From Bdellovibrionales bacterium (lineage in GTDB: Bacteria > Bdellovibrionota > Bdellovibrionia > Bdellovibrionales > JAGQZY01), in contig JAYUQP010000022.1 of the NCBI GenBank assembly GCA_043757265.1, forward strand, positions 8,683 through 72,682: a stretch of 64,000 bases of DNA, in the 5' to 3' direction. The first letter of the stretch is position 1. Each line of letters begins with the position of its first letter. The translations under genes and the position numbers were made by a program. The notes below the pieces were generated by a model. That model had not been told where the DNA came from and searched no databases. It saw only the letters and a list, made by a program, of their open reading frames with translations. This document shows positions 6,509-54,628 of this stretch, one piece after another.

Positions 6509-8965
6509 ATGAGAGTTTTCTTTATCTTCGTATCCATTCTGATTATCTCTAAAAATACACTTGGCAAATCACCGTCGGACGCGAAGCTCGATTGGCTTGT
6601 TAAAAGCTTCAGCGCCGATCATGTTGCAAGAATCGATAAAGTTCAAAGTCCGTTTGCAAAGATTCCAAACACTTACTTAGACAAAAAAAAATGCTTGTTT
6701 GATGAGGCTGTTGCCCTGGAAATTGAGCAAAGACTTATACACTCGTGGGCTGCGTCTTGGAAAGATAAAAATATTGCGGCTTTTGGCTCTCTGTTGGGAG
6801 AAAACAGCCTCATAACAGATTGGAAAATTAAAAAAGCGAAGAGCGTTTCTCCACTCTACGACTCAACTAGCTGGACCGTGGGAGCTAAAGTCTCAACTCT
6901 GGCACCTGTCACCTCATTTTTAAAAGAATTCTTCACGATCGAGTCCGTACAGCTTGATTTTGTCGACATGGAAATTCCTGTAAGTTCACGCACGAAAAAT
7001 GGGACCAATTTCGCCAAAGCAAAGCTGCTTGTGCGTTTTGATATTCGCGGAATTGCAATGGACCAAAGCCGTAGAAACGATACAGGAACCTTTTTAGTAA
7101 ATATTTTTCGTAATAGTACGGAATGGAAAATTCAAGAGATTGAAGTCACTGCGGGTCAAACGATTGCTGCAAACAGAAAACTTTTTGAGGAAAATACGCT
7201 CAATGCAAAGCTGGATTCTATCCCTACACTTGTGAGAACGGAGGCCATTCGGCGGGGAGGATTTGCTCTCTCAGTCGCAGACTTCAATAACGATTTGATC
7301 GTTGATCTATTTGTTGGAACTGAAAAAAGCAGTTATTTATTAAAAGGTCGTGCCGATGGCACTTTTGCCCTTGATACTGATAACGATTTTTCTACAGAAA
7401 AATCTGTTAAAACTGCGATGTTTACCGACTTGGATAACGACGGGTGGCAAGATCTTGTGCTTGTTCATTTCGTCTACGATAAATTAAACACAATCTCACT
7501 CTACCGGAACACAAACGGACATTTTGTTAAATCAAAAAATAATCCCGAAAAGAATCCTCCCGACTACCCAATGCCTGCAGCCATTGGAGATTTTGATGCG
7601 GATGGTTTTATCGACATGTATGTGGGATTTCCAGGTGTAAAAGACTTCACAAATCTTGATTTTAAGTACAGTGCCAAGGCGACAATACCAACTACAAAGA
7701 GCCCTGAAGGGATTTATTTCAACAACAAACGTGGCGAGTTTTTACCCGCGGTTTGGGATTTTAAGAAAAAAACCAACGACGCAAGACTCAGCTCGCAAGA
7801 GGCTCGCGCAGCAGTCTTTCCGCATTCCGCTATTGCGGTCGATTATGACAACGATGGGCACCAAGACATCATAGTAATGGATGATCGCGGAGGTATAAGT
7901 CCAGTTTTTAAGAATATCGGAAATGGAAAATTTGAACAGGTTGCTGAGAAAATTGGGGTTTCCAACCATGGGTATGGAATGGGCGTAGCTGTAGCTGACT
8001 ACAACAACGACGGCGCACAAGACATAATAATGACAAACGTCGACTTTACCGCCGCTCATCGACTTTATAATAGCTGTCGGCAAAATCATGATATCGATGC
8101 CGCCGTCAATTTTAGTCAAGGACTCACAATCTACAAAAACACGGGCAAAGGACAATTTGTTAACGACACCCGCGCTGCGAATCTTTCATGGATTGGAGAA
8201 GGCGCCGGCGGCGCCGAATTTATTGATTTCGACAATGACGGTTGGCAGGATATCTACGTCGTCAACGGTCTGTGGTCAGGGACTACCCCAACTCAAGACC
8301 TTTCAAGCTATTTTGTTAGGGCGGTATTCACAACCATGGCTTGGGACCGCCCCGATCTAGATTATGGGAGATCGCATTTTATGAGCATTCTCTCGGATCA
8401 TAATGGTCCCCTCGACAAAAGTGGAAATGCAGTCGTCCCAATGCGCTTATCCATGGGTGGATTTCAAAGAAACCGGTTATTTCACAACAACCGGGATGGT
8501 ACGTTTTCTGAGATTGGATATATAGCTGGGGTTGACTCGTTGGCCGACGGCTACGTTGTTGCCAAAGCAGACCTGAACAAAGATGGATTTATGGACCTTA
8601 TTTTGAGAAATGCCGACCCAGGTACTAAAGACTACTTGTTTTCACCAGTGCAACTGTTTTTGAATAAAGGTGTTTCGTCGAAAAAAAGTATATTGATCAC
8701 ATTGCAAGGCCGAAGATCAAACCGTGACGGCATTGCTTCAAAAATCATCGCAAAAATTAAAGGGCAAAAGCAAAGCTACGAAGCCATAGGGAACAACGGC
8801 GCAGCTCAGAGCGAAAAAACCATCCACGTGGGACTTGGCGACGCAAAAAAAGCAGAAACATTAGAAATACATTGGCCTTCTGGAGAAAAAACTTTAATGA
8901 ATAATGTTCCCGCTGGAACTATAACGATCAAGGAGCCCACATCACAGCAAGTGAGTGGACTCTAG
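6509..8965 (+). CDS. CRTAC1-family protein (FG-GAP/VCBS repeats plus C-terminal ASPIC/UnbV domain)
   Basis: 818 aa with a signal peptide. Repeated Ca-binding FG-GAP cores are present: DLDNDGWQDL, DFDADGFIDMY, DYDNDGHQDII, DYNNDGAQDII, DFDNDGWQDIYVVNG and DLNKDGFMDLILRN. The C-terminus 'SNRDGIASKI...IHVGLGDAKKAETLEIHWPSGEKT' is typical of ASPIC/UnbV. Confidence 0.85.
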   Translation: MRVFFIFVSILIISKNTLGKSPSDAKLDWLVKSFSADHVARIDKVQSPFAKIPNTYLDKKKCLFDEAVALEIEQRLIHSWAASWKDKNIAAFGSLLGENSLITDWKIKKAKSVSPLYDSTSWTVGAKVSTLAPVTSFLKEFFTIESVQLDFVDMEIPVSSRTKNGTNFAKAKLLVRFDIRGIAMDQSRRNDTGTFLVNIFRNSTEWKIQEIEVTAGQTIAANRKLFEENTLNAKLDSIPTLVRTEAIRRGGFALSVADFNNDLIVDLFVGTEKSSYLLKGRADGTFALDTDNDFSTEKSVKTAMFTDLDNDGWQDLVLVHFVYDKLNTISLYRNTNGHFVKSKNNPEKNPPDYPMPAAIGDFDADGFIDMYVGFPGVKDFTNLDFKYSAKATIPTTKSPEGIYFNNKRGEFLPAVWDFKKKTNDARLSSQEARAAVFPHSAIAVDYDNDGHQDIIVMDDRGGISPVFKNIGNGKFEQVAEKIGVSNHGYGMGVAVADYNNDGAQDIIMTNVDFTAAHRLYNSCRQNHDIDAAVNFSQGLTIYKNTGKGQFVNDTRAANLSWIGEGAGGAEFIDFDNDGWQDIYVVNGLWSGTTPTQDLSSYFVRAVFTTMAWDRPDLDYGRSHFMSILSDHNGPLDKSGNAVVPMRLSMGGFQRNRLFHNNRDGTFSEIGYIAGVDSLADGYVVAKADLNKDGFMDLILRNADPGTKDYLFSPVQLFLNKGVSSKKSILITLQGRRSNRDGIASKIIAKIKGQKQSYEAIGNNGAAQSEKTIHVGLGDAKKAETLEIHWPSGEKTLMNNVPAGTITIKEPTSQQVSGL

Positions 8966-38958: not shown

Positions 38959-40335
38959 TTAAATGTCAAAAAACGTATACGTTTTATTCGCAATCAACTC
39001 GTGAATTTGCCCATCAAACGGTGTCGCAAGCGGCGTCGATACGCCATTCTGTAACTGAAAAAGATAGCCATCTTCTGTCAGCCCTAGTGTTACGCTACCA
39101 GATTTATAAATGCGTTTAAAGGCCTGGTCATACTGAAGGCTTGAAGTTTTCATGTAGGGGTTCTTCTTGGCGTCGCAACCGAACTCGACGATAGACCCGT
39201 TATCCATCTGCATATAGCCCACGAGGCTCAATTTGTCGTACCCATTCGGGTAAATGATCGAAGTCGGAGTGCCCGAAGTGATGCTTTGTTCTACTTTTGT
39301 TCCGCTGCCGTACGGATCGCAAACAAACCGCACCTTATCCAGGGTGACTTTCGCCGACCATAAACCACCGTAGTGAATGCCAACAAGCTTAGCTTTTTCC
39401 TCGGGAGTTTGGTTATTGTACTCAACAGCATCGGCTCCAGCCGGTTGGTTTAACTGCCCTTCGTCTTTGGTAAAAACGTAGGTCGCAGGAAGAGTTTTAT
39501 CATCTGGAAAGAGCACATAATAATCACGACGAATCGCGATCTGTCCAAGATGCGGCGAAGAACCCTGCCTGGTGATTTTCGGAGTGGCTTGATCGAAGAC
39601 TAATTTATGAAATCCTAGGTCTTTATTCAAAACCAAAAAGTCTGGCGAAAAACTAATGCTCACTGGAAATTCAAAAGCCTCAAATGCATACACCAACGCG
39701 GAAGCTTTTGAGTAGGCCTTCATCGCTGGATGCACGTTTTGCGAGTATCGCGCGATCTGTGCGTAGGTTTCCACCGTTACGGCATATGAACCCGAGTCAG
39801 TAATGCGCGTGTCACACGCCCCTTGGATTCCTTTTCGAGGACCGTTCGTACACGTAGTGTGCGGAAATCCATCGATGTGTCGCGCCTCGTGCATATAAAC
39901 GCTTGCACTATCTAATGCCGAAAACGCATCCGACAGCATCAGCGGACACACATACATAGTCTTACTACCAAAGGTCGGCATTACAAAAGCACCGGCGCCT
40001 TTAGGGCAGTTCGCCTGGATATTGAACTTGTTAATTCTACCGGTAAAATAGGTCCACCAGTTTGTGGCAAATTTTCCGGAGAACATTTGATCTTTGCTCA
40101 CTGGCATTGATGCGTCGAATTTTGTATCGCGCATAAACATAATTCCAGCCATCAAGCGTGAAATGTCTGTATTGTCATAGCAATATTCTTTACCCGCTAA
40201 ATTTTGAAACTGGGTAAATTTTTTGGCAATCTCGCTCATATCAGCTGCAGATATGCACTCGGCTGCTTGAACACTTGCTGTTAATATTTGAACACTAAAG
40301 AATAGTCCGAATAGGACGCGTTTTGAAAAATCCAT
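38959..40335 (-). CDS. secreted protein with HExxH motif (putative zinc metalloprotease)
   Basis: Signal peptide ...FFSVQILTASVQA/A. 'SVYMHEARHIDGFPH' gives HExxH plus a downstream His. The RBS is AGAGGGGGA. Confidence 0.45.
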   Translation of the reverse strand: MDFSKRVLFGLFFSVQILTASVQAAECISAADMSEIAKKFTQFQNLAGKEYCYDNTDISRLMAGIMFMRDTKFDASMPVSKDQMFSGKFATNWWTYFTGRINKFNIQANCPKGAGAFVMPTFGSKTMYVCPLMLSDAFSALDSASVYMHEARHIDGFPHTTCTNGPRKGIQGACDTRITDSGSYAVTVETYAQIARYSQNVHPAMKAYSKASALVYAFEAFEFPVSISFSPDFLVLNKDLGFHKLVFDQATPKITRQGSSPHLGQIAIRRDYYVLFPDDKTLPATYVFTKDEGQLNQPAGADAVEYNNQTPEEKAKLVGIHYGGLWSAKVTLDKVRFVCDPYGSGTKVEQSITSGTPTSIIYPNGYDKLSLVGYMQMDNGSIVEFGCDAKKNPYMKTSSLQYDQAFKRIYKSGSVTLGLTEDGYLFQLQNGVSTPLATPFDGQIHELIANKTYTFFDI

Positions 40336-40450: not shown

Positions 40451-41140
40451 TCAGAGTTCTGATTGCAATTCGGACTGCTTACGCTGCGCGTAGTTTTTCA
40501 CTGTCATGTCGTCTTGTCGATTGATAATTTTGCGAAGCTCATCAATTCGCAAGCTCAACGGACGATCGCTTTCGGCAATGGCATCAATGGCGATGATGGC
40601 TTTAGCGCGCTCTTGATTATTTTGTAATTCTTGAATCGAATGTGGTTCTGCAGGCTCGCCATTCACCGGTCGCGAGGCCACTTCGCTCAAGCTACCAAAT
40701 GTTGCGTCTCCGCCGAGCGATAGCAAGTAGGTCGCAAGAATCCTTTCGTTATGGGACGCCGAAGAATTTGTTACTGCTCTTTTCAAAAACTCAATCTGTG
40801 GCGCCGTAAAAACCTTTGCTGCCTGACGAAGCTCAGCCTCCTTTAAATTAACATCAAGATGGATTGAACTCATCTGCTTGATCTCTTCGCGAAACCACCC
40901 ATTAAATTTTGCACCCACCCCGGCATCATTCAAATTTGCAGGGCTCCGATCTAAATTCGACTTTTGCTGTATTTGTGCTGACTCGTTTTCTTCAGACTCA
41001 TTTGTTTTAAAGTAGTCTGAGGTTTCGACGATAACTTCGCCGACTGTCTTCTTCTTATCGATCACGAACCGATTAAAGGATGTTGCCGCCACAACGATCA
41101 ACAAAACCACCGCAAAATAAAGCAAAAGACGCTTCATCAT
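40451..41140 (-). CDS. membrane-anchored hypothetical protein
   Basis: 229 aa with N-terminal TM MMKRLLLYFAVVLLIVVAATSF. It starts 2 nt after the rhodanese gene stop. Confidence 0.45.
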   Translation of the reverse strand: MMKRLLLYFAVVLLIVVAATSFNRFVIDKKKTVGEVIVETSDYFKTNESEENESAQIQQKSNLDRSPANLNDAGVGAKFNGWFREEIKQMSSIHLDVNLKEAELRQAAKVFTAPQIEFLKRAVTNSSASHNERILATYLLSLGGDATFGSLSEVASRPVNGEPAEPHSIQELQNNQERAKAIIAIDAIAESDRPLSLRIDELRKIINRQDDMTVKNYAQRKQSELQSEL

Positions 41141-43266: not shown

Positions 43267-43583
43267 AGAGTGCGCTGTACTTTAAAGTTGGTTTTCGTCT
43301 GGTTTCAATTGAGAGATACTTTTGTTAACCACAGAGCCAAACGGCGAAAGTACTATATAACCCATCGCGTAGAATTGCCGAGCTAAACACACAGAATTTT
43401 CGAGCTGAAAAGCCAATTCCCCTCAGTTTCTTCAGATTGTAGTCAATTCTAAAAACATTAAAATATTTTCAATTCTCCGCATAGTTTTGAATCATTTGCA
43501 GAGGGTTGGTAACGCATTAACTTATCTAAAATAAGTCAATGTTCGGGGTTTGATTACGGCTTTTTTTATGTTGGGGAATTATC

Positions 43584-46500
43584 ATGAAAGTTCAAAAAAT
43601 ACGCTTTGCAGCCTGTTCGCAATTTCTTTTCTTATTTTTGTTTGCCCAATCATTTGCCGATATCAATGAATCGTCGGCGCTAAAAACCTACAAAGAACGG
43701 CTGCGAGTGATAGAAAACAGCCTTAATCCTGCCGAAATGTACGAGGCGACGAAAGATCTTGTACCAACCAACGAATCTTTCGAAATCCTAAAACAGACCC
43801 TGGCACATCTTCCCGACCGACACAATAACGGCGACTTCGAGAAAGCTTTCAATCCAGAAAATACGATTATGATTCTTCTGGAGGCTTTTGAAAAACATGC
43901 CTCTTCCGTAGACATCGAACTCCTTGCCGATCTCAATCGATGGGCAGATCTTTCCCACCTCGAAGAAGTTGTGCAGCAAAAGATAATTCAAACTGCTATT
44001 TACCTCAAAAATATAAGCTCGGCACGCAAGCTTGTTTCGATGAATACCCTATACCCCTCAAGCGGAATACGCCCTTCCCCGACCACACTTCGCCTTGCAG
44101 GACCAAGTCCACAAAAAATCAGTGATGCACACCAATCCGCATTGATTGAAATTGAGCGCTTTTACCGGAGCATGAAAGATCGCGTTGTTGGACAAGATGA
44201 TATTCTTAAATCCTTCCGCTCCCTTTACATCAGTGACCTTATTAGCGGAGGTCGCCGTATTGAGCCAGAAGTTTTTTATCTGATGGGTCTTCCTGGGAAT
44301 GGCAAAGACACCATCGCCGAGGCCTATATTGATGCTCTTTGGAATATGCGAGACGCTCACGTTTCGCATATGTATCGCATCAACATTCGCACTAAAGAAG
44401 AAGCGTGGAGTTTATTTGGTTCTAGCAAGGGATACGTCGGCTCAGCTGACCTCCCCAGTTTCTTAAAGTTCTTGGTTGAGCACTCGGGCGGTAAATACAT
44501 ATTGGGCAGCGAGGCGACACCTCAAGGGACCCGAACTATTGTCGAAAAAAATACGACATGGAAGGCTGACGAATTCACTTTAAGAGCCCCGTCCCATAAG
44601 GCTGTTATTTTTGTAAACGAAGCTCACAATATCCCTCGTGCAGTAAAGGACAATATTCTCAAACAAGCCATCGAACGTGGTATTTTTCCAATCACCAATC
44701 CAGGCTCCACTCCCAACGCTGTTTCGCAAATTCAACTGCCCGTAACTTTTATCTTCGCATCCAACGAGGGAATTGATCTGCTCGAACCGCGCGAAAAAAA
44801 CGGAGCGCGCCTTGGTAAACCTTTATCCTTTGATCGTTTGCTTGAAAATTATGAACGCGTCTTTAAAGATAAAGAACGCCTGAAACAAGCAATCATGAAG
44901 GGCAATGGCGAGCTCAATAATCCAAATCATCCGGATCAACCAGGAACCTCAGAAGAGTTTCTCAATCGTTTCCCTGACCATCGCGTTCACCTGTTACGTC
45001 CACTCAGCCCAGAAAACCTCCAGCGGATCGCTGAAATATTAATTAAAGCTGAAAGTAACAAACTTAAAAATGCGAGCGGACGCCTTGGACAATACACCGT
45101 CACATTGTCAGAGGAAGCCATTCGCTTTATCACTCAATATGATTCTATTCCTTCTGAAAACTCTCGTCCGATCAAGGCTCGACTGAAAAGTTTTGTCTTT
45201 GATGAAATTTTTCAGGCCATTGAAAGCAAAGAAATTAAACCATCTTCGCTTGTCCAAGATATTTACGTCGACATTCAACTCAATCCGGATGGCTCACGCT
45301 CCGCTCATTTTAAAATCACTGATTCAAATCCAACCTCTTATGAGTTTTGGAGCGTTATCGATCAAACCCTCAAAGATGTTCCCCAGGAACCCTTGTCACG
45401 AGACCGCATAGAGGCAATTTTAAAAATGCGTCAACAAATTCTCGATAATGTGTTCGGTGTTGAACACATCGTCGATAAGCTAATTGAGGCCGCGATTGTT
45501 TCCGAAAGCGAATCACGCAATGCCGGTGAGTCAAAAAGGCCTGCCACGGTGATGGCTTTTTTAGGTAAAACTTCCACTGGAAAAACAGAGACCGCAAAAC
45601 AGTACGTAAAAGCTCGCTATGGAACTCACGAACGGCTTGAAACAATCGACTTCAATGGGATCCGCGATCTCCAAGCGATGAACGCAAGAATTCTTGGCAC
45701 CTTTGATGCGCGAAATAATCCTATCGCCTCAGATTTCATGAAGGCCTACGACCGTGCTCCCGATGGAAATATTGCATTTATCTTTGATGAGGCCGCAAAT
45801 TCACCAAGGGAGTTGTTAAAAGGTCTGTATGAGATTTTGCGAGAACCGGTTGTTTCTGGTTTTTCTGACGGAAAGCCACGTCCCATGAAAAATGTAACTA
45901 TTATTTTGACGGGCAATGCCGGTGAACAAATCTACAACTTGATTCCAAAAGATCTTCCAACCGATGTTTACGAACGCGCCATGCGCGAGGTCTTTCGAAT
46001 TTTCCTGAATAACGCCGACCTCCAGCAACGAATTTTAGCAGAGACTTTCCCAGACGCGTTCATTGCGCGTCTGGGAAATAATGTTTATCATTTCGGCCCC
46101 TTGAAAGACTCAGGCAAGCGGCAAGTGGCGCAGTTGAAACTCCTCAAGGGACTTGAAGGACTAAAGCCTAAAAACAGTGAGCGTGGCTGGAATATGGTCT
46201 TTGCTAAAGAGTCCGATATTTTAGACCTCTTCGACCTTATCGAAAAAGAAGGGTTTAACAGTGCCCACCAGGGCGCCTCGATCGACTCCTTTGTTCGGCT
46301 TTCCATCATTGATAAAATCAAAGCCAAACTGCTGAGTGAAAATGTCGCTAATGGACAAGATGTCATGATTGAAGTTGCGAAAGAATCTATCGTACGGTCC
46401 GACCGCGACGTTTCAAATTCCTTTAGACACATGAAAATTATCACCGAAGCTGGTCAAGAATTTATCGTCGAAATCCCAATTTCGAAAAGAACGACTTCGA

Positions 46501-47624
46501 TGGCGGTTAGCGACGTGGATCGAATTTTAACGGCCTATCACGAAGTGGGCCATGAGATTGTTTCAGAAGTTTATTTTGGTGATCGCGTACGCCCGAAATA
46601 TATTTCGATCATCGAAGGCGTGACTCTTATTGGAGCTTCCTTTGTCCACTACGCAGGAATCCGCGTCGGGCAACCCCTTTCCGCCGGTCCGCGCACAAAA
46701 CAGGTTGTTCTTCGCGAAGCTGCTGTTTTGTATGGTGGCTATGTGGCCCAGCAGCTGGTTACGATAGGAGGTCGTCATGACTCTGGGAAAAAGAATGATT
46801 TCCATCGTGCCACACGACTTATTCAAAATGCCATTCTTCGCGATGGACTCTCGGACGAGTGGGGGAAAAGGTCCATTCCAGACAACGTAAAAACTGGCGA
46901 CTACATTGATCAAGAACTTTCTCCCGAGGAAAAAGCCAAACTCAATCACATCACAGATCGTTGGATGAGCTACGCTGAGCAATTTGCACGCGAAGCTTTA
47001 TATGTGAACATGGATCGACTTTTTGTGGTTCTCGGCAAGCGTCTTTCGGAAAAAGGTTTCCTAGATCAAAAAGCAATTTCTGAAATTCACGATCGATTTT
47101 CTCCGGTCACTGAAAGAACAGTAGACTTTGCCGGCAAATTAGATGAAGTGCGCAAAGTCATCGCACTTATTGAGCAGAGCGGGGCTAACGTAGGATCGGT
47201 TCTTGAAAACAAATTCCGCACAAGAGCCTACAGCGTTGATAACGCCCACGAGGCCTTTAACCTAGTAATGAAAGCGTCGAGGAAAGCAGGTTTATTTGAA
47301 AAAGTCCGTACGTACTTTTTTCCTCCCTGGGATAAATTGACGGAGCTTCAAAAAACTGTTGCGGCCTCTTACCTTGGAAACAAAATATCTGATTTGAGTC
47401 GTGATGCACGCATCGCCGGCGAATACTGGATGCCAGAATCTGTTGCCAACATTGATGAAATCATCAAAGAAGAGCGCCTTCGCGAAACTCGTCCCGTCAC
47501 TGATTTAGCTCGCTTTGAAATCTTAAAACAAGATTTAATGGTTTCGGAAGAGACCATCGAAGACATTCAAAGATCAGTCACCCAAAAATCAACAGCGGCG
47601 CTTTCTTGTAAAAACATTTTCTGA
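43584..47624 (+). CDS. fusion protein: export-type N-terminus, two Clp/Hsp100 D2-type AAA+ modules and a C-terminal FtsH-type M41 zinc peptidase
   Basis: 1346 aa. Module 1 has 'GLPGNGKD' and 'IFVNEAH' (degenerate Walker A/B). Module 2 has 'GKTSTGKT' and 'FIFDEA' (canonical). The C-terminus 'TAYHEVGHEIV...ISIIEGVTLIG...LYGGYVAQQLV...KKNDFHRATRLIQNAI' parallels FtsH M41. Confidence 0.8.
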   Translation: MKVQKIRFAACSQFLFLFLFAQSFADINESSALKTYKERLRVIENSLNPAEMYEATKDLVPTNESFEILKQTLAHLPDRHNNGDFEKAFNPENTIMILLEAFEKHASSVDIELLADLNRWADLSHLEEVVQQKIIQTAIYLKNISSARKLVSMNTLYPSSGIRPSPTTLRLAGPSPQKISDAHQSALIEIERFYRSMKDRVVGQDDILKSFRSLYISDLISGGRRIEPEVFYLMGLPGNGKDTIAEAYIDALWNMRDAHVSHMYRINIRTKEEAWSLFGSSKGYVGSADLPSFLKFLVEHSGGKYILGSEATPQGTRTIVEKNTTWKADEFTLRAPSHKAVIFVNEAHNIPRAVKDNILKQAIERGIFPITNPGSTPNAVSQIQLPVTFIFASNEGIDLLEPREKNGARLGKPLSFDRLLENYERVFKDKERLKQAIMKGNGELNNPNHPDQPGTSEEFLNRFPDHRVHLLRPLSPENLQRIAEILIKAESNKLKNASGRLGQYTVTLSEEAIRFITQYDSIPSENSRPIKARLKSFVFDEIFQAIESKEIKPSSLVQDIYVDIQLNPDGSRSAHFKITDSNPTSYEFWSVIDQTLKDVPQEPLSRDRIEAILKMRQQILDNVFGVEHIVDKLIEAAIVSESESRNAGESKRPATVMAFLGKTSTGKTETAKQYVKARYGTHERLETIDFNGIRDLQAMNARILGTFDARNNPIASDFMKAYDRAPDGNIAFIFDEAANSPRELLKGLYEILREPVVSGFSDGKPRPMKNVTIILTGNAGEQIYNLIPKDLPTDVYERAMREVFRIFLNNADLQQRILAETFPDAFIARLGNNVYHFGPLKDSGKRQVAQLKLLKGLEGLKPKNSERGWNMVFAKESDILDLFDLIEKEGFNSAHQGASIDSFVRLSIIDKIKAKLLSENVANGQDVMIEVAKESIVRSDRDVSNSFRHMKIITEAGQEFIVEIPISKRTTSMAVSDVDRILTAYHEVGHEIVSEVYFGDRVRPKYISIIEGVTLIGASFVHYAGIRVGQPLSAGPRTKQVVLREAAVLYGGYVAQQLVTIGGRHDSGKKNDFHRATRLIQNAILRDGLSDEWGKRSIPDNVKTGDYIDQELSPEEKAKLNHITDRWMSYAEQFAREALYVNMDRLFVVLGKRLSEKGFLDQKAISEIHDRFSPVTERTVDFAGKLDEVRKVIALIEQSGANVGSVLENKFRTRAYSVDNAHEAFNLVMKASRKAGLFEKVRTYFFPPWDKLTELQKTVAASYLGNKISDLSRDARIAGEYWMPESVANIDEIIKEERLRETRPVTDLARFEILKQDLMVSEETIEDIQRSVTQKSTAALSCKNIF

Positions 47625-47761: not shown

Positions 47762-49003
47762 TTAAGGTACGTAAGCTATGGTGTTTCTCGTGGTGTAACC
47801 TAAATCAGTGCATGCCGTGACATAAATTGAAGCCATAAAGCGATTTGTCGTCGGATTCCAACATCTGTACAAGGGTTTAGTCGCGAACAAAGTGGCAACG
47901 GTGGATGCGTATCCGATCAAGCTTGCCGTTTCCGTCGTTGAATTACAGCCCGTTGCAATCCGAGTATTTTTAGTTGTATTTATTTGACAGTTAAAAAGAG
48001 CCGTCGAATTTTGCGGTAGCGCCTGGTTGTAAGCTCGAAAGCTTATAGTCTCTGCTACATAAAGGACAGGAGTCGCCGCTCCGTCAGGCAAAAACAGATA
48101 AAATTTTGAAGCCGGGTTTTGAAACTTTCGGATGTTTCTTTGACCTGTGGGAGCAGCGCCGGCTATTTGGTAAGGCTTAGGTCCGTACATTTGATAGACG
48201 TATCGTTTGTCCTCAGAACTTAATGCTCCTCTCACTGTAACCGCTGTTCCGATAATATCATCGTATTGGCCACTGGGAGTAAATATCGTTTGCAAGCCCG
48301 GTTTAGAGCCACTGTTTTTAGTGTAATGCATAATTGAATAATAATCGTAGGGGCCCGACCGAGTTATTTCTATAGCGCTATAAATGTCGAATGCCGCAAT
48401 CGACTCGGTTCGAACATTGTTGAATTCAACTCGAATATAGCTATTGCGGTCTGGTCTTGCATGTTCGTGAATAAGGCCAAGTAAATGGCCGAATTCGTGT
48501 TGGATGATGCCACCATTAGGTGCCGTAAAACAACGGGCCGGATCTAAATTTATGTACGCAACGTTTGTTGTCGTTTTAAACCCATAGGTCGAACTGCAAC
48601 GACCGGTTTCACGAAAAATGTATACGATCGGTGTTGGTTCAGAGCTCTGCCATCCTGCTGACACGATACATTTTAAATTGGCCCACTTAGCCCATGCATT
48701 ACAGGCGGCAATAATCGTCGTTCGCTCAGCTGAAGTAAACTCACTGTGAATCCACATTCGTACTTCGCCGTTAGGCCACCTTGGTGCTGTGGCGAGTTTT
48801 GCTTTACCATCGAGGCCAGTTTGGTTTTCATCAAAGATGTACATATCGTCGCCGACAAGAGTCGTTCCTATTTGTTGCTCTGCAAGGCCCATCGAACCAG
48901 CAATCGACGAAGTCGTCGCATCTCTCCCACAATTGTTAAAGAGCGGAAAAAAAACGAAGCTGAAACCAGCCATCAGCATGACAAGTATGTTTTTCTTATG
49001 CAT
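47762..49003 (-). CDS. astacin-family (M12A) zinc metalloprotease lipoprotein with a C-terminal repeat domain
   Basis: Lipobox-like FPLFNN/CGRD. 'HEFGHLLGLIHEHARPDRNSYI' is the astacin HExxHxxGxxHE signature and 'YYSIMHY' is the Met-turn. The C-terminal ~150 aa has three 'YR.(W/Y)N...' repeats. Confidence 0.85.
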   Translation of the reverse strand: MHKKNILVMLMAGFSFVFFPLFNNCGRDATTSSIAGSMGLAEQQIGTTLVGDDMYIFDENQTGLDGKAKLATAPRWPNGEVRMWIHSEFTSAERTTIIAACNAWAKWANLKCIVSAGWQSSEPTPIVYIFRETGRCSSTYGFKTTTNVAYINLDPARCFTAPNGGIIQHEFGHLLGLIHEHARPDRNSYIRVEFNNVRTESIAAFDIYSAIEITRSGPYDYYSIMHYTKNSGSKPGLQTIFTPSGQYDDIIGTAVTVRGALSSEDKRYVYQMYGPKPYQIAGAAPTGQRNIRKFQNPASKFYLFLPDGAATPVLYVAETISFRAYNQALPQNSTALFNCQINTTKNTRIATGCNSTTETASLIGYASTVATLFATKPLYRCWNPTTNRFMASIYVTACTDLGYTTRNTIAYVP

Positions 49004-51565: not shown

Positions 51566-52771
51566 TTAGTACCGTGGACCCGTATTAGAACTTCCAGGCC
51601 GCTTCGGCGATGCGTTTTGTAACTGCGAAAGATCCTTGAATTTTGCAAGACTCGCTTTTACACGCTCTGCCATATCCGGAATAAGTTGTATATCGGGATG
51701 GGACGAAAGGGCCAAGTGCTCAAGTTGTGCATAGCACTTGATCGCCACGGGCGAATGCGGAGAGTTCTCGATACAAGTTTCTAAATAATGTTCTCCAAGT
51801 TTCCATACATCCACAGTCTTAAGCGCTTCGGCCGTGACTCCCGCAAAATACAAAGCCGACGAATATCCAGCCCCCTCTCGAGAACTTTCAAGCAACTCGT
51901 GCAAGATTCCGGATGCCCGTAAGTAAATCATAAATCCCGATTGATTTTGGGCATACTTTGGGGACCTTGCTTGGTCTAATAATCTTTTAACAAACTCTAA
52001 TTTTTTCGGGCTCTTAACGGATTGTTTATCTTCCATCTGCCAATCTTTTAGACTCGTAAGCCACGCCTTCATATCAACCATGAGATACGCTGGAAGGTTC
52101 TTCGCTGATAGAGCTAAGCTTACTAATTTTTGCGCCCGCGGAAGATCCTGTTGCACGCGGACCATCACTGCGAGATCTTTTTGAAGTGATAACATCCACA
52201 TGTTGGGATCGGCTAAAAGTATAGAATCATTTTGGATAATTTTTTCTGTTTCTAAGTGAGCCGTTTCGTACTGACGATTGGCAAGGTAGTAAGTAATTTT
52301 TTGCGTGGAGTTGAGGTGCGAAAGGTTGCTTGCCCACGGCAAAGGAAAATTTTTGCTCCCACGGTCGGCACGGCTATGGCAACTGATGCAATAGTTACCA
52401 AGATGCGAAAGCGTATAATGGGCCGGCCGCAGTTTAGCGCTATCCAGAGATTGACTCGCAGCTTTTAACTCGTTTGAAAACTCCTCTGCTGTAAATGCAA
52501 TTATTGGATCGGCGTTTGGTGCGGTGGTGTCTTTGGTCATTTCAACGGAGGCCTTCATCATTTCGTTGGTTTTTTCGCGAATAAAGGAAAGGTTTTTGGG
52601 ATCATAAAATTCTTTGGGATCCGCTAAGATTGGAGTGAGCGCCGAATGATTCACCGATAACCGGTGCATGGTTTCGTACCAACTGGCACCTCCAGTGGCA
52701 CTTTTTGACGAATTGTCCGTAGTGCATCCTAAGAAAAAACTGATTATGAGAGATAGACGTAAAACGCGCAT
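51566..52771 (-). CDS. lipoprotein with CxxCH heme-binding motif and helical-repeat C-terminal region
   Basis: Lipobox SFFLG/CTTD. 'LGNYCISCHSRADRG' carries the CxxCH motif, followed by a TPR-like helical region. Confidence 0.5.
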   Translation of the reverse strand: MRVLRLSLIISFFLGCTTDNSSKSATGGASWYETMHRLSVNHSALTPILADPKEFYDPKNLSFIREKTNEMMKASVEMTKDTTAPNADPIIAFTAEEFSNELKAASQSLDSAKLRPAHYTLSHLGNYCISCHSRADRGSKNFPLPWASNLSHLNSTQKITYYLANRQYETAHLETEKIIQNDSILLADPNMWMLSLQKDLAVMVRVQQDLPRAQKLVSLALSAKNLPAYLMVDMKAWLTSLKDWQMEDKQSVKSPKKLEFVKRLLDQARSPKYAQNQSGFMIYLRASGILHELLESSREGAGYSSALYFAGVTAEALKTVDVWKLGEHYLETCIENSPHSPVAIKCYAQLEHLALSSHPDIQLIPDMAERVKASLAKFKDLSQLQNASPKRPGSSNTGPRY

Positions 52772-52957: not shown

Positions 52958-54628
52958 CTACGGCTGCACACATCGCCGCGCATTGGTCAGATATTGCATG
53001 GGTTGATCCAGAACTCGGTTATTGCAGTACACCTGATTGTTTGGCGCATCGGTCGATTCACGATGAAGGTAAATCAGCATTCGATCAGGACTGGTGTTGT
53101 TGAGCTCGCCAGTATTATTGTCGAAAATATTAAAATTTCCCTGCCCCGGAGTTAAAACGATCTGCTTAAAACCCCGCACAGGAGTGTTTCGACCCATGTT
53201 GTTTTTAATAACCCAATAGTTGCCTTTGATATTGACCCACGACTCGGCAGAGTTTACTTGCGAGATACCACGCCCATCAAACTGATTGCCTTCGATAAGA
53301 CCTCGCGACGTAAACTCTTTGATGTCGATGTGCTCAGCTGTGATTCCCGGTCCAAATTGATTATTTAAAATCTGATTGTAATCACTGGCGTCTTCGATGC
53401 CTTTGTTGAGAGAAGATCCGATGTAAACTCCCTCGCCAATACCTTCCGCACCCCGTTCAAGTCCGGTGTTGTAAAACCGGCTATTTTCGATCACGTTATG
53501 GTGACTCCACAGCATAAGATGGAGAGCTTCGTGTCCCACATCGTGGACCACGAGGCGTTCGAAGCGGCTGAAGTTTGTCCCCTCGGCCATGAGACCTTTC
53601 ATCCCTAGCGAAAAATCAATTTGTGAAACACGAACGTACTGACTATTTTTTAAAGTTAAAATTCTTTTTCCAGAAGTCGCACCGGGACCTACGATTTTTG
53701 CAGCGCCATCACCACACAAGGTGATCATTTTTGTACTTGTGCCGCGCAGATTTTCGAACACCACCGAATCTAGAAGATAAGTTCCTGCAGCAAGGACAAA
53801 TAAATCTCCAGCCACTGCACGTGTTGGGAGCGCCCGTAAATCTGCAACATTCGAGATGACAATTTTTCGATCATGCGGGTAACGATCGCAACTTGAGGAC
53901 GTGGGCGGAGGCGGAGGAGTTATCGGCGGTAGAGGCTGCTGCGGGAGGACCGTACAGGCTGCAAAAGAATGGGCCGTATTCCCACCGAGAACTCCGTTTG
54001 TGCAAGTGCGATTGCTGCTAACACAAGTAGCGCCAAAACTGACTGTGCCACTGGCATAGGCTACAACTGAGGAATTGTGCGCAACCGTTTGCCCATTGAA
54101 TGTACAGGCAAGGGGTGCATCTACGGAGCAGCTAGATCTGGTATAAGTGCCACTGAGAATTCCATCATTGCAACGTCTTTGCTCTTGCATGCAGACCTGC
54201 CCGTAGACCACTCGGCTCGAGAGATACGCACCCACAGTTGCATCATGTGCAATTGTTCTTGTGTTGAATAGACAGGAATTTTTACTTTCTGGAAGGGTGC
54301 TGCAGCTTGCGAAGCCAAAAGAGCCAGAGAGAACTCCACCAGAGCAGGTGCGAGTTTCTTTTTGCGCACAGCTAGCGGAAACGCTTACCTGGTACGCCTC
54401 GACCGATGCACCGTCTGCCAACACCGACCCATTGAATAAGCATTGCAGTACGGTTGGCTCCTTGATTACCGGCTCGGTAATGACAGGCATGCATGTTTCA
54501 CCCTCGCAGCTGTTCTGGCTCTCTGAAGAACTTGTGAAAGTCTCATAGCCTTGACCGCAGTTTTGGAAGGGTAAAAAACAAACCAGAACTAAGATGATGA
54601 TAAAGCTTTTTTTTCTGATTCTACGCAT
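52958..54628 (-). CDS. lipoprotein with three Cys-rich ~50-aa repeats, a Pro-rich linker and a right-handed parallel beta-helix domain
   Basis: FQNC lipobox (LPFQN/CGQG). Repeats follow 'C.FNG..(A/V).(D/H).(A/S).V.AY......C....R.C..G.LSG....SC'. The linker is 'PLPPITPPPPPT'. PbH1-like turns are 'NSRFYNTG', 'NNQFGPGITAEHIDI' and 'GNQFDGRG'. Confidence 0.65.
   Translation of the reverse strand: MRRIRKKSFIIILVLVCFLPFQNCGQGYETFTSSSESQNSCEGETCMPVITEPVIKEPTVLQCLFNGSVLADGASVEAYQVSVSASCAQKETRTCSGGVLSGSFGFASCSTLPESKNSCLFNTRTIAHDATVGAYLSSRVVYGQVCMQEQRRCNDGILSGTYTRSSCSVDAPLACTFNGQTVAHNSSVVAYASGTVSFGATCVSSNRTCTNGVLGGNTAHSFAACTVLPQQPLPPITPPPPPTSSSCDRYPHDRKIVISNVADLRALPTRAVAGDLFVLAAGTYLLDSVVFENLRGTSTKMITLCGDGAAKIVGPGATSGKRILTLKNSQYVRVSQIDFSLGMKGLMAEGTNFSRFERLVVHDVGHEALHLMLWSHHNVIENSRFYNTGLERGAEGIGEGVYIGSSLNKGIEDASDYNQILNNQFGPGITAEHIDIKEFTSRGLIEGNQFDGRGISQVNSAESWVNIKGNYWVIKNNMGRNTPVRGFKQIVLTPGQGNFNIFDNNTGELNNTSPDRMLIYLHRESTDAPNNQVYCNNRVLDQPMQYLTNARRCVQP

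Follow-up and report, generated by a model that had tools for sequence, protein, structure and literature searches.

A putative AAA+ protease of Bdellovibrionota that joins tandem Clp-type motors to an FtsH-type peptidase behind a conserved export-type leader

To our knowledge, the known energy-dependent proteases (FtsH, Lon, ClpXP/ClpAP/ClpCP, HslUV, and the proteasome with its ATPases) all work at the cell's own ATP. FtsH-type M41 proteases are membrane-anchored with their catalytic domains in the cytoplasm; ClpA, ClpC, and ClpX work with a separate ClpP, which they engage through a docking loop, and ClpB has no peptidase. We describe here a gene from a Bdellovibrionales bacterium (Bdellovibrionota; GenBank assembly GCA_043757265.1, contig JAYUQP010000022.1) that appears to encode a new AAA+ protease architecture, in which tandem Clp-type motors and an FtsH-type protease share one chain and are coupled to a conserved export leader. 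The gene, hereafter the fusion, occupies 43584..47624 (+) of a stretch of 64,000 nucleotides (the window; positions 8,683 to 72,682 of the contig). A preliminary description of this DNA had proposed a leader, two D2-type AAA+ modules, and an M41 domain in one chain and could place the combination in no characterised family. The architecture proved to be real, and its homologues carry only generic names ("hypothetical", "AAA family ATPase", "ClpA", or the like). Searches of the literature returned nothing specific on the architecture, on AAA+ proteins exported by Bdellovibrio, or on the C-terminal Cys tail described below.

Domain architecture, catalytic sites, and family

The fusion is a single ATG-started open reading frame (ORF) of 1346 residues, uninterrupted by stop codons as previously reported, and the sequence motifs that the preliminary description quoted were all found at their positions; the domain layout is given in Table 1. 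The peptidase is supported by profile above the curated threshold. Pfam Peptidase_M41 (PF01434) matched residues 974-1168 at 52.6 bits (cut-off 29.9), covering profile positions 2-191 of 191, and the score in a whole-genome scan was 55.9 bits; the protease half of the NCBIfam FtsH model aligned with residues 966-1163 (E 2e-11). His986, Glu987, His990, and Asp1072 are invariant across the family, and Asp1072 aligns with the Asp of the E. coli FtsH S-N-D motif, which in FtsH structures is the third zinc ligand. Pfam and family invariance thus bear out the earlier assignment of the C-terminal part to FtsH-type M41, with HExxH and a downstream Asp. Full-length models scored far below their cut-offs (ClpB 64.7 bits, cut-off 1232; ClpA 33.2, cut-off 993; FtsH TIGR01241 43.6, cut-off 600), TIGR01241 aligned over the M41 part only, and a Pfam scan returned no PF00004 match. 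Judged by these profiles, membership of peptidase family M41 extends to the catalytic domain of the fusion and no further.

Pfam was less informative for the AAA+ modules. The weak matches were to AAA_2 (residues 653-785), ClpB_D2-small (474-555), and Torsin (612-679); on the fusion sequence alone, AAA_2 and ClpB_D2-small were below their gathering scores (18.4 and 16.5 bits), and module 1 received no AAA_2 match in the Pfam scan. Of the Pfam matches anticipated earlier (M41, two copies of AAA_2, and ClpB_D2-small), only M41 was therefore obtained above threshold. Precomputed AAA_2 (PF07724) matches do exist in many homologues. Because the Pfam AAA matches are sub-threshold, the AAA assignment rests on NCBIfam, PDB, and fold evidence. 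The D2 part of the NCBIfam ClpB model aligned with residues 598-936 (E 5e-18), and phmmer against PDB sequences paired the second nucleotide-binding domain (NBD2) of ClpB with residues 598-807 and that of Hsp104 with residues 164-296, in module 1. AlphaFold2, run on two overlapping parts using family alignments, returned predicted local distance difference test (pLDDT) values of 91.8 for residues 26-620 and 90.8 for residues 590-1346. In foldseek comparisons with ClpB NBD2, the target TM-scores were 0.72-0.80 for the first model and 0.72-0.77 for the second; ClpB NBD2 and ClpC D2 were returned for both AAA modules, and the FtsH structures 3kds and 7tdo matched module 2 together with the M41 domain of the 590-1346 model. 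The PDB, NCBIfam, and fold matches to ClpB NBD2 agree with the proposal that both modules are of the Clp D2 type.

Other origins for these parts were considered and rejected. The N-domain is not a divergent Clp_N domain, as hhalign against the N-termini of Clp_N-bearing ClpB and ClpC gave a probability of 0.2%; BLASTP of module 1 against module 2 gave nothing significant, contrary to what a recent tandem duplication would leave; and PADLOC returned only weak, partial AAA matches, so the fusion was not assigned to an anti-phage defence family.

Residue conservation was read from family alignments of 74-78 members with identities down to ∼25%. The preliminary description had taken module 1 for a degenerate pseudo-ATPase, and the alignments do not support this. 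Module 1 does lack the canonical GK[ST]/DE signature and reads GKD[TS] and NE instead, but its Walker A, G-x-P-G-x-G-K-D-[TS] (here G-L-P-G-N-G-K241-D242-T), is found in 78/78 aligned members and its Walker B N-E (here N345-E346) in 75/78. Also invariant or nearly so are Lys241, Glu346, the sensor-1 Asn394, the Arg finger Arg462 (F-L-N-R), the sensor-2 Arg528, and the pore-loop Tyr284 (G-Y-x-G; here G-Y284-V-G), and the lid is D2-small-like with additional beta strands. Module 1 departs from a canonical site solely at two residues that normally contact magnesium, through a reciprocal exchange (Thr to Asp, Asp to Asn) that was then fixed. Because the variant residues are conserved together with the remaining catalytic residues, the alignments indicate a constrained variant ATPase site and not a decayed one, and the swap may be viewed as a natural experiment on magnesium coordination in AAA+ sites.

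Module 2 had been called canonical, which holds for its Walker A (Lys667, Thr668), Walker B (Asp735, Glu736), sensor-1 (Asn778), and Arg finger (Arg829): Lys667, Asp735, Glu736, Asn778, and Arg829 are invariant or nearly so, Thr668 is nearly invariant, and the site is predicted to be a competent ATPase site. It does not hold elsewhere in the module, which has no aromatic pore loop and carries Ser899 at the position expected for the sensor-2 Arg. Because the AAA+ and M41 catalytic residues are invariant or nearly invariant in the aligned members, both ATP use and proteolysis appear to be under selection, and we regard the assignment of architecture and function as an AAA+ protease as highly probable.

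These losses in module 2, the non-canonical Walker motifs of module 1, and the fact that the periplasm is without ATP (PMC4174580) would all suit a protein that is exported but turns over no ATP, its AAA+ rings acting as a scaffold or holdase, independent of nucleotide or just stabilised by it, that passes loosely folded proteins to the M41 ring in the predator's periplasm or outside the cell. However, both modules keep the Walker A Lys, Walker B Glu, sensor-1 Asn, and Arg finger invariant or nearly invariant across wide divergence, a pattern that is hard to explain without hydrolysis, and we consider such an ATP-independent mode distinctly unlikely.

The fusion belongs to a family confined to one phylum. 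A search of 5.8 billion proteins identified ∼80 full-length homologues (1250-1430 residues, 30-87% identity), and a profile search of 1.84 billion cluster representatives (50% identity clusters) returned 121 clusters at E ≤1e-30, ∼110 of them in the family. A pattern scan of one genome per species, covering 185,579 species, yielded 55 loci, all from Bdellovibrionota assemblies: 54 were titled as metagenome-assembled genomes of this phylum (Bdellovibrionales, Pseudobdellovibrionaceae, Bdellovibrionaceae, Bacteriovoracaceae, or Oligoflexia), and one record says merely "bacterium". Among 401 sampled Bdellovibrionota genomes, the gene was present without internal stops in 32, the source genome included (a few frames were cut short). 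The source genome has one copy of the fusion and encodes canonical FtsH, ClpB, and ClpP elsewhere, so the fusion gene is an extra; a possible second copy at a contig edge (C88, ending S-C-K-E-L-F) was unrelated to it by BLASTP.

Since the source genome is a draft of 133 contigs, a misassembled or miscalled fusion of Clp-like and FtsH-like genes, or an overextended start that creates a false leader, had to be weighed, and an assembly fusion had been named as a concern from the outset. The same stop-free, full-length architecture occurs in dozens of independent assemblies (NCBI, ENA, JGI, and Logan), including the 32 genomes and ∼110 clusters above, the leader is kept in function rather than in sequence among homologues, and a Shine-Dalgarno-like motif precedes the ATG. 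Misassembly is excluded, and an artefact is effectively refuted.

More distant relatives of 1150-1550 residues start with a leader, are poor in cysteine, and carry a Cys close to the C-terminus; one PF00004-type module is combined with AAA_2 modules, to give two or three canonical Walker A sites, and an M41 HExGH lies near residue 1200. One such relative had full-length matches in ∼35-40 of the 401 genomes, mostly in families without the two-module form, and both forms occurred in three genomes (G029, G090, and G349). The spread of this sister family makes multi-AAA/M41 fusions with predicted export a recurrent theme of Bdellovibrionota.

Leader, cysteine depletion, and the C-terminal tail

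By a heuristic test, a leader-like N-terminus was present in 72/80 family members and in 0/36 ClpB/ClpC controls, and the eight exceptions mostly appear to be N-terminally truncated. In the typical family leader, 1-4 positive charges precede an uncharged stretch (median length 18 residues), which is followed by small residues at -3/-1 and then by acidic ones; by the same heuristic, the fusion has a Sec-type signal, with three positive charges, 18 uncharged residues in a row, and S-F-A just ahead of Asp26. Twin arginines are rare, with RR within the first 25 residues in 10/150 members. Net charge averages +1.8 ahead of the hydrophobic stretch and -0.9 across the following 15 residues, so that by the positive-inside rule the bulk of the protein is predicted to be translocated. 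The leader had been distinguished from the two-transmembrane anchor of FtsH, and rightly: the fusion has no 19-residue window with a mean Kyte-Doolittle value ≥1.6, whereas the FtsH of the same genome has two (residues 3-21 and 108-126). A lipoprotein reading of F-A-A-C at residues 8-11 was rejected, as there is no hydrophobic region before the Cys and homologues do not conserve the motif.

The conserved lone-Cys tail of the family and the near absence of other cysteines were both absent from the preliminary description. No cysteine at all was found between leader and tail in 59/78 members, and the cysteine frequency over this interval was 0.024%, as compared with 1.27% for ORFs of the window and 0.26% for ClpB controls. 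This depletion argues for export, because in an oxidising compartment additional thiols should be selected against.

The last Cys of the chain lies 4-19 residues from the C-terminus in 144/150 full-length members, within the consensus [ST]-C-x-x-[LIV]-[LF], with a median of 6 residues following it. About 12 other ORFs of the source genome end likewise; ∼11 of these are leader-bearing, and most have only 1-2 cysteines. They include 5'-nucleotidase-like, FAD oxidoreductase, amidoligase-type, DUF7790, and weakly trypsin-like proteins, and across them the tail takes the form C-x-x-[ILV]-[FL] followed by 0-12 residues. Both leader and tail were present in 31/31 homologues of the amidoligase-type protein and in 42/43 homologues of the 5'-nucleotidase-like protein. 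Because the tail is common to these leader-bearing families, the fusion would fall into a class of exported, single-thiol, C-terminally tagged proteins. The tail is probably a sorting or attachment tag that acts after Sec and is shared with other exported enzymes, and it looks like an undescribed, lineage-wide one; no curated NCBIfam model matches it. It may be the hallmark of an entire class of predator effectors and of a sorting route that is new. Two other explanations of the tail were set aside. A eukaryote-style CaaX box has three residues after the Cys, and here there are at least four and never three. Nor do we favour a zinc "cysteine switch" for the M41 site, since families other than proteases carry this tail too; the AlphaFold2 position of the tail is not confident.

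The conserved leader, the scarcity of cysteine, and a tail common to unrelated leader-bearing families together make export of the fusion likely, a judgement that we keep short of firm because the leader test is a heuristic with a high background. The same observations bear on an opposite topology, in which the fusion would be a cytoplasm-facing, membrane-tethered quality-control protease and functional paralogue of FtsH, with the hydrophobic stretch as an uncleaved anchor. This would remove the ATP paradox and would be in keeping with the membrane-anchored, cytoplasm-facing disposition of FtsH-type M41 proteases, and the evidence for leader cleavage comes from a heuristic. However, the charge bias predicts an N-in/C-out orientation, the uncharged stretch is short and never reaches the transmembrane strength seen in the genome's own FtsH, and small residues at -3/-1 followed by acidic ones are typical of cleaved leaders. 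A tethered protease facing the cytoplasm would also leave unexplained both the cysteine depletion and a tail held in common with a 5'-nucleotidase-like family, classically a periplasmic type. We therefore judge it unlikely.

Two further genes of the source genome touch on the tail. An Amidoligase_2-family protein has a conserved export-type leader as well as the Cys tail. Amidoligases are an enzyme class that uses ATP, and an exported-looking and presumably ATP-dependent amidoligase would mean that the ATP paradox is not unique to the AAA+/M41 fusion. The genome also has a single Rce1-like gene (CPBP, the type II CAAX-protease family) within a 534-residue open frame. Enzymes related to this family act, in other phyla, as processing proteases for Cys-containing C-terminal sorting signals (10.1101/2023.06.07.544157), which makes the gene a candidate for the tail-processing enzyme, although the family is common in bacteria and this is only a lead.

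Proposed action and gene surroundings

The explanation that we favour overall, at a probability of roughly 0.5, is that the fusion is an autonomous hexameric unfoldase-protease that is exported by Sec and acts outside the predator cytoplasm. By analogy with ClpB/ClpA and FtsH, the mature chain (∼residues 26-1346) would form a hexamer of three tiers, namely a first AAA+ ring, a second AAA+ ring, and a ring of FtsH-type zinc proteases, with the helical N-domain on top to engage substrates. A polypeptide would be gripped and threaded by the conserved Tyr pore loops of ring 1, and the power to push it, unfolded, into the M41 chamber to be cleaved processively would come from ATP hydrolysis in ring 2, whose site is fully canonical, and probably also at the variant site of ring 1. 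The hexamer and the order of threading are thus drawn from known machines, and export itself, the source of ATP, and the substrates are likewise matters that we infer.

With a cleavable Sec leader, the fusion would work away from the predator's cytoplasm, and the preliminary description had offered, as conjecture, either anchoring in the envelope or delivery into prey. Because the periplasm of a free-living cell lacks ATP and the ATPase residues are under selection in a protein that appears to be exported, the site of action during predation would most likely be a prey-derived compartment (breached prey cytoplasm or the bdelloplast), where prey ATP would be available and prey proteins would be the substrates. 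In current predation models, the inner membrane of the prey is breached and the prey receives exported lytic enzymes (PMC12428579). We put action in an ATP-containing prey compartment at a little under even. More tentative is the full proposal that the fusion is the first bacterial ATP-dependent protease to operate outside its producer's cytoplasm, delivered by its tag into breached prey and burning prey ATP to digest prey proteins.

Several points weigh against the explanation that we favour. The leader heuristic is permissive and flagged ∼1/3 of all ORFs in the genome, and the variant site of module 1 may bind nucleotide without hydrolysing it. The family is known entirely from uncultured genomes, and its spread is patchy (10/27 and 9/20 genomes in two families, 2/53 in another, and 0/26 in one genus), which implies that the fusion is not a core predation function. 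Finally, we know of no route that would take the fusion from the predator periplasm into prey. If export is true, the fusion would challenge the rule that bacterial extracytoplasmic proteolysis is ATP-independent, and it would provide a concrete molecule for the open question of how a predator takes apart the cytoplasmic proteins of its prey; a recent review describes the functional evidence on predator hydrolases as still limited (PMC12428579).

The surroundings of the gene agree with the preliminary account on GC content and ORF inspection: an AT-rich upstream spacer of 317 bp (36.9% GC, as compared with 44.2% for the whole window), a 212-residue upstream ORF with a leader-like N-terminus, and a convergent astacin gene downstream, which has 9 cysteines and no Cys tail. 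The fusion gene itself has 44.9% GC, and composition gave no signal of recent horizontal transfer. In a scan of the region for promoters and terminators, site counts were the same as in shuffled sequence, so the scan was uninformative. It flagged an inverted repeat with a 14-bp stem (8 G-C pairs) within the coding sequence of module 2, at the codons that surround the Arg finger. Shuffled sequence yields as many sites of this sort, and the repeat is not followed by a T-run. The 16 kb around the fusion gene are rich in ORFs with leader-like or lipoprotein-like N-termini (Table 1), mostly without a Pfam family, the astacin being the exception.

When the ORFs of 21 family loci with ∼8 kb flanks were clustered, the fusion gene alone was shared, and neither a partner nor an operon emerged; the neighbourhood in the window, including the leader-like ORFs, is not conserved beside the fusion in other genomes. 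The lack of conserved neighbours fits an autonomous machine. It also bears on whether the fusion could be an exported translocation motor, whose AAA+ stack would unfold other predator proteins and push them across a prey membrane with M41 as a processing peptidase. Plasmodium HSP101 offers a precedent (PMC7355975), and the C-terminal tag is common to other exported enzymes. Yet no conserved neighbouring pore or adaptor gene was found in the 21 loci, and the complete, invariant M41 site lies directly below the motor as in FtsH, an arrangement used by processive degradation. We find a translocation motor improbable, and processive degradation by an autonomous unfoldase-protease remains the explanation that we prefer.

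Table 1. Features of the fusion, its surroundings, and related loci. Positions without a contig label refer to the window; labels beginning with C are contigs and those beginning with G are genomes other than the source.
Feature	Location	Strand	Basis or remarks
Shine-Dalgarno-like GGGGA	43573..43577	+	6 nt before ATG; read from sequence
Sec-type leader (predicted), residues 1-25	43584..43658	+	K2, K5, R7 n-region; 18-residue uncharged stretch; S-F-A at -3..-1; acidic next
Family-specific helical N-domain, residues 26-150	43659..44033	+	∼8 helices; high-confidence AlphaFold2; no Pfam match
AAA+ module 1, ClpB-NBD2-like, residues 186-595	44139..45368	+	Hsp104 NBD2 match, foldseek, motif conservation
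AAA+ module 2, ClpB-NBD2-like, residues 596-965	45369..46478	+	NCBIfam ClpB, PDB ClpB NBD2, foldseek, motifs
Inverted repeat within module 2	46046-46078	+	Terminator scan
Peptidase M41 domain, residues 966-1170	46479..47093	+	Pfam above cut-off; H986-E987-x-x-H990, Asp1072 in G-K-x-N-D
Helical C-terminal extension, residues 1171-1318	47094..47537	+	Conserved R-D-A and V-A-N-I motifs; AlphaFold2 mostly >80 pLDDT; no family match
Low-confidence tail, residues 1319-1346	47538..47621	+	Ends S-C1342-K-N-I-F; pLDDT ∼50 or lower over most of last ∼27 residues
Neighbouring ORF	38959-40335	-	Leader-like or lipoprotein-like N-terminus
Neighbouring ORF	40451-41140	-	Leader-like or lipoprotein-like N-terminus
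Upstream ORF, 212 residues	42628-43266	+	Leader-like N-terminus
Astacin gene	47762-49003	-	Leader-like or lipoprotein-like N-terminus; Pfam-assigned
Neighbouring ORF	51566-52771	-	Leader-like or lipoprotein-like N-terminus
Neighbouring ORF	52958-54628	-	Leader-like or lipoprotein-like N-terminus
Tail-bearing ORF	C15:201-1850	-	
Tail-bearing ORF	C31:23311-24714	-	
Tail-bearing ORF	C35:12685-14169	+	
Tail-bearing ORF	C53:19915-20778	+	
Tail-bearing ORF	C67:53508-54635	-	
Tail-bearing ORF	C88:2-673	+	
Tail-bearing ORF	C89:55213-56382	-	
Tail-bearing ORF	C91:91753-92898	+	
Tail-bearing ORF	C119:1491-2522	+	
Tail-bearing ORF	C124:40792-41973	-	Amidoligase_2 family
Rce1-like (CPBP) gene	C80:7456-7713	-	
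Sister-form example	G208 C6:322234-326433		Other Bdellovibrionota genome
Sister-form example	G172 C5:717071-721057		Other Bdellovibrionota genome

Comparison with known systems

FtsH shares with the fusion an ATPase joined in cis, N-terminal to an M41 domain with HExxH and a downstream Asp ligand, and its structures align over module 2 and M41, from which the fusion may be expected to be hexameric with a protease ring below the motor. Unlike the fusion, FtsH has two N-terminal transmembrane helices that flank a periplasmic domain and a single AAA module of the classic clade, whereas the fusion has a short Sec-type leader, two Clp-NBD2-type modules, a C-terminal extension of 150 residues, and the Cys tail. 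The class I Clp/Hsp100 proteins (ClpA, ClpB, ClpC, and Hsp104) likewise stack two AAA+ modules and have the D2-type large domain with a D2-small lid; ClpB NBD2 is the best match in sequence and fold for both fusion modules, the G-Y-V-G pore loop is found in module 1, and a double Clp ring that feeds a peptidase recalls ClpA/ClpC-ClpP. However, both modules of the fusion are D2-like and there is no D1, since module 1 matches NBD2 and not NBD1; no Clp_N domain is detectable; module 1 reads GKD/NE instead of GKT/DE; a leader is present; and the peptidase is in cis rather than a separate ClpP, the ClpP of the source genome being encoded elsewhere and unlinked.

Outside bacteria, the torsins, AAA+ proteins of the endoplasmic reticulum lumen, are related to Clp D2, enter by a signal sequence, and depart from the canonical motif at the residue that follows the Walker A lysine (GKN in torsins, GKD in the fusion). 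The Pfam Torsin match on the fusion was 19.7 bits, below the cut-off of 27, so the fusion is not a torsin by this profile, and torsins differ in being eukaryotic, having a single module and no protease, and lacking the Arg finger that the fusion keeps in both modules. Plasmodium HSP101 (ClpB2) of the PTEX complex is a ClpB-like AAA+ protein that enters the secretory route, acts in the parasitophorous vacuole, and there powers protein export to the host cell (PMC7355975, PMC6550532). It is a precedent for a ClpB-type motor acting outside its producer's cytosol between invader and host, but it is eukaryotic, has no protease domain, and docks on a membrane pore (EXP2/PTEX150), whereas no pore partner lies beside the fusion gene.

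The C-terminal tail is best compared with the MYXO-CTERM/JDVT-CTERM-type signals, which are tripartite (motif, transmembrane segment, and Arg cluster) and processed by Rce1-like CPBP enzymes (10.1101/2023.06.07.544157). Both are short C-terminal signatures with an invariant Cys, found within one lineage on leader-bearing proteins from many unrelated families; the fusion tail differs in having neither transmembrane segment nor Arg cluster, and the residues after its Cys are too few to span a membrane. As a predicted AAA+ protease with an export signal, the fusion would be unlike every known bacterial machine of this kind.

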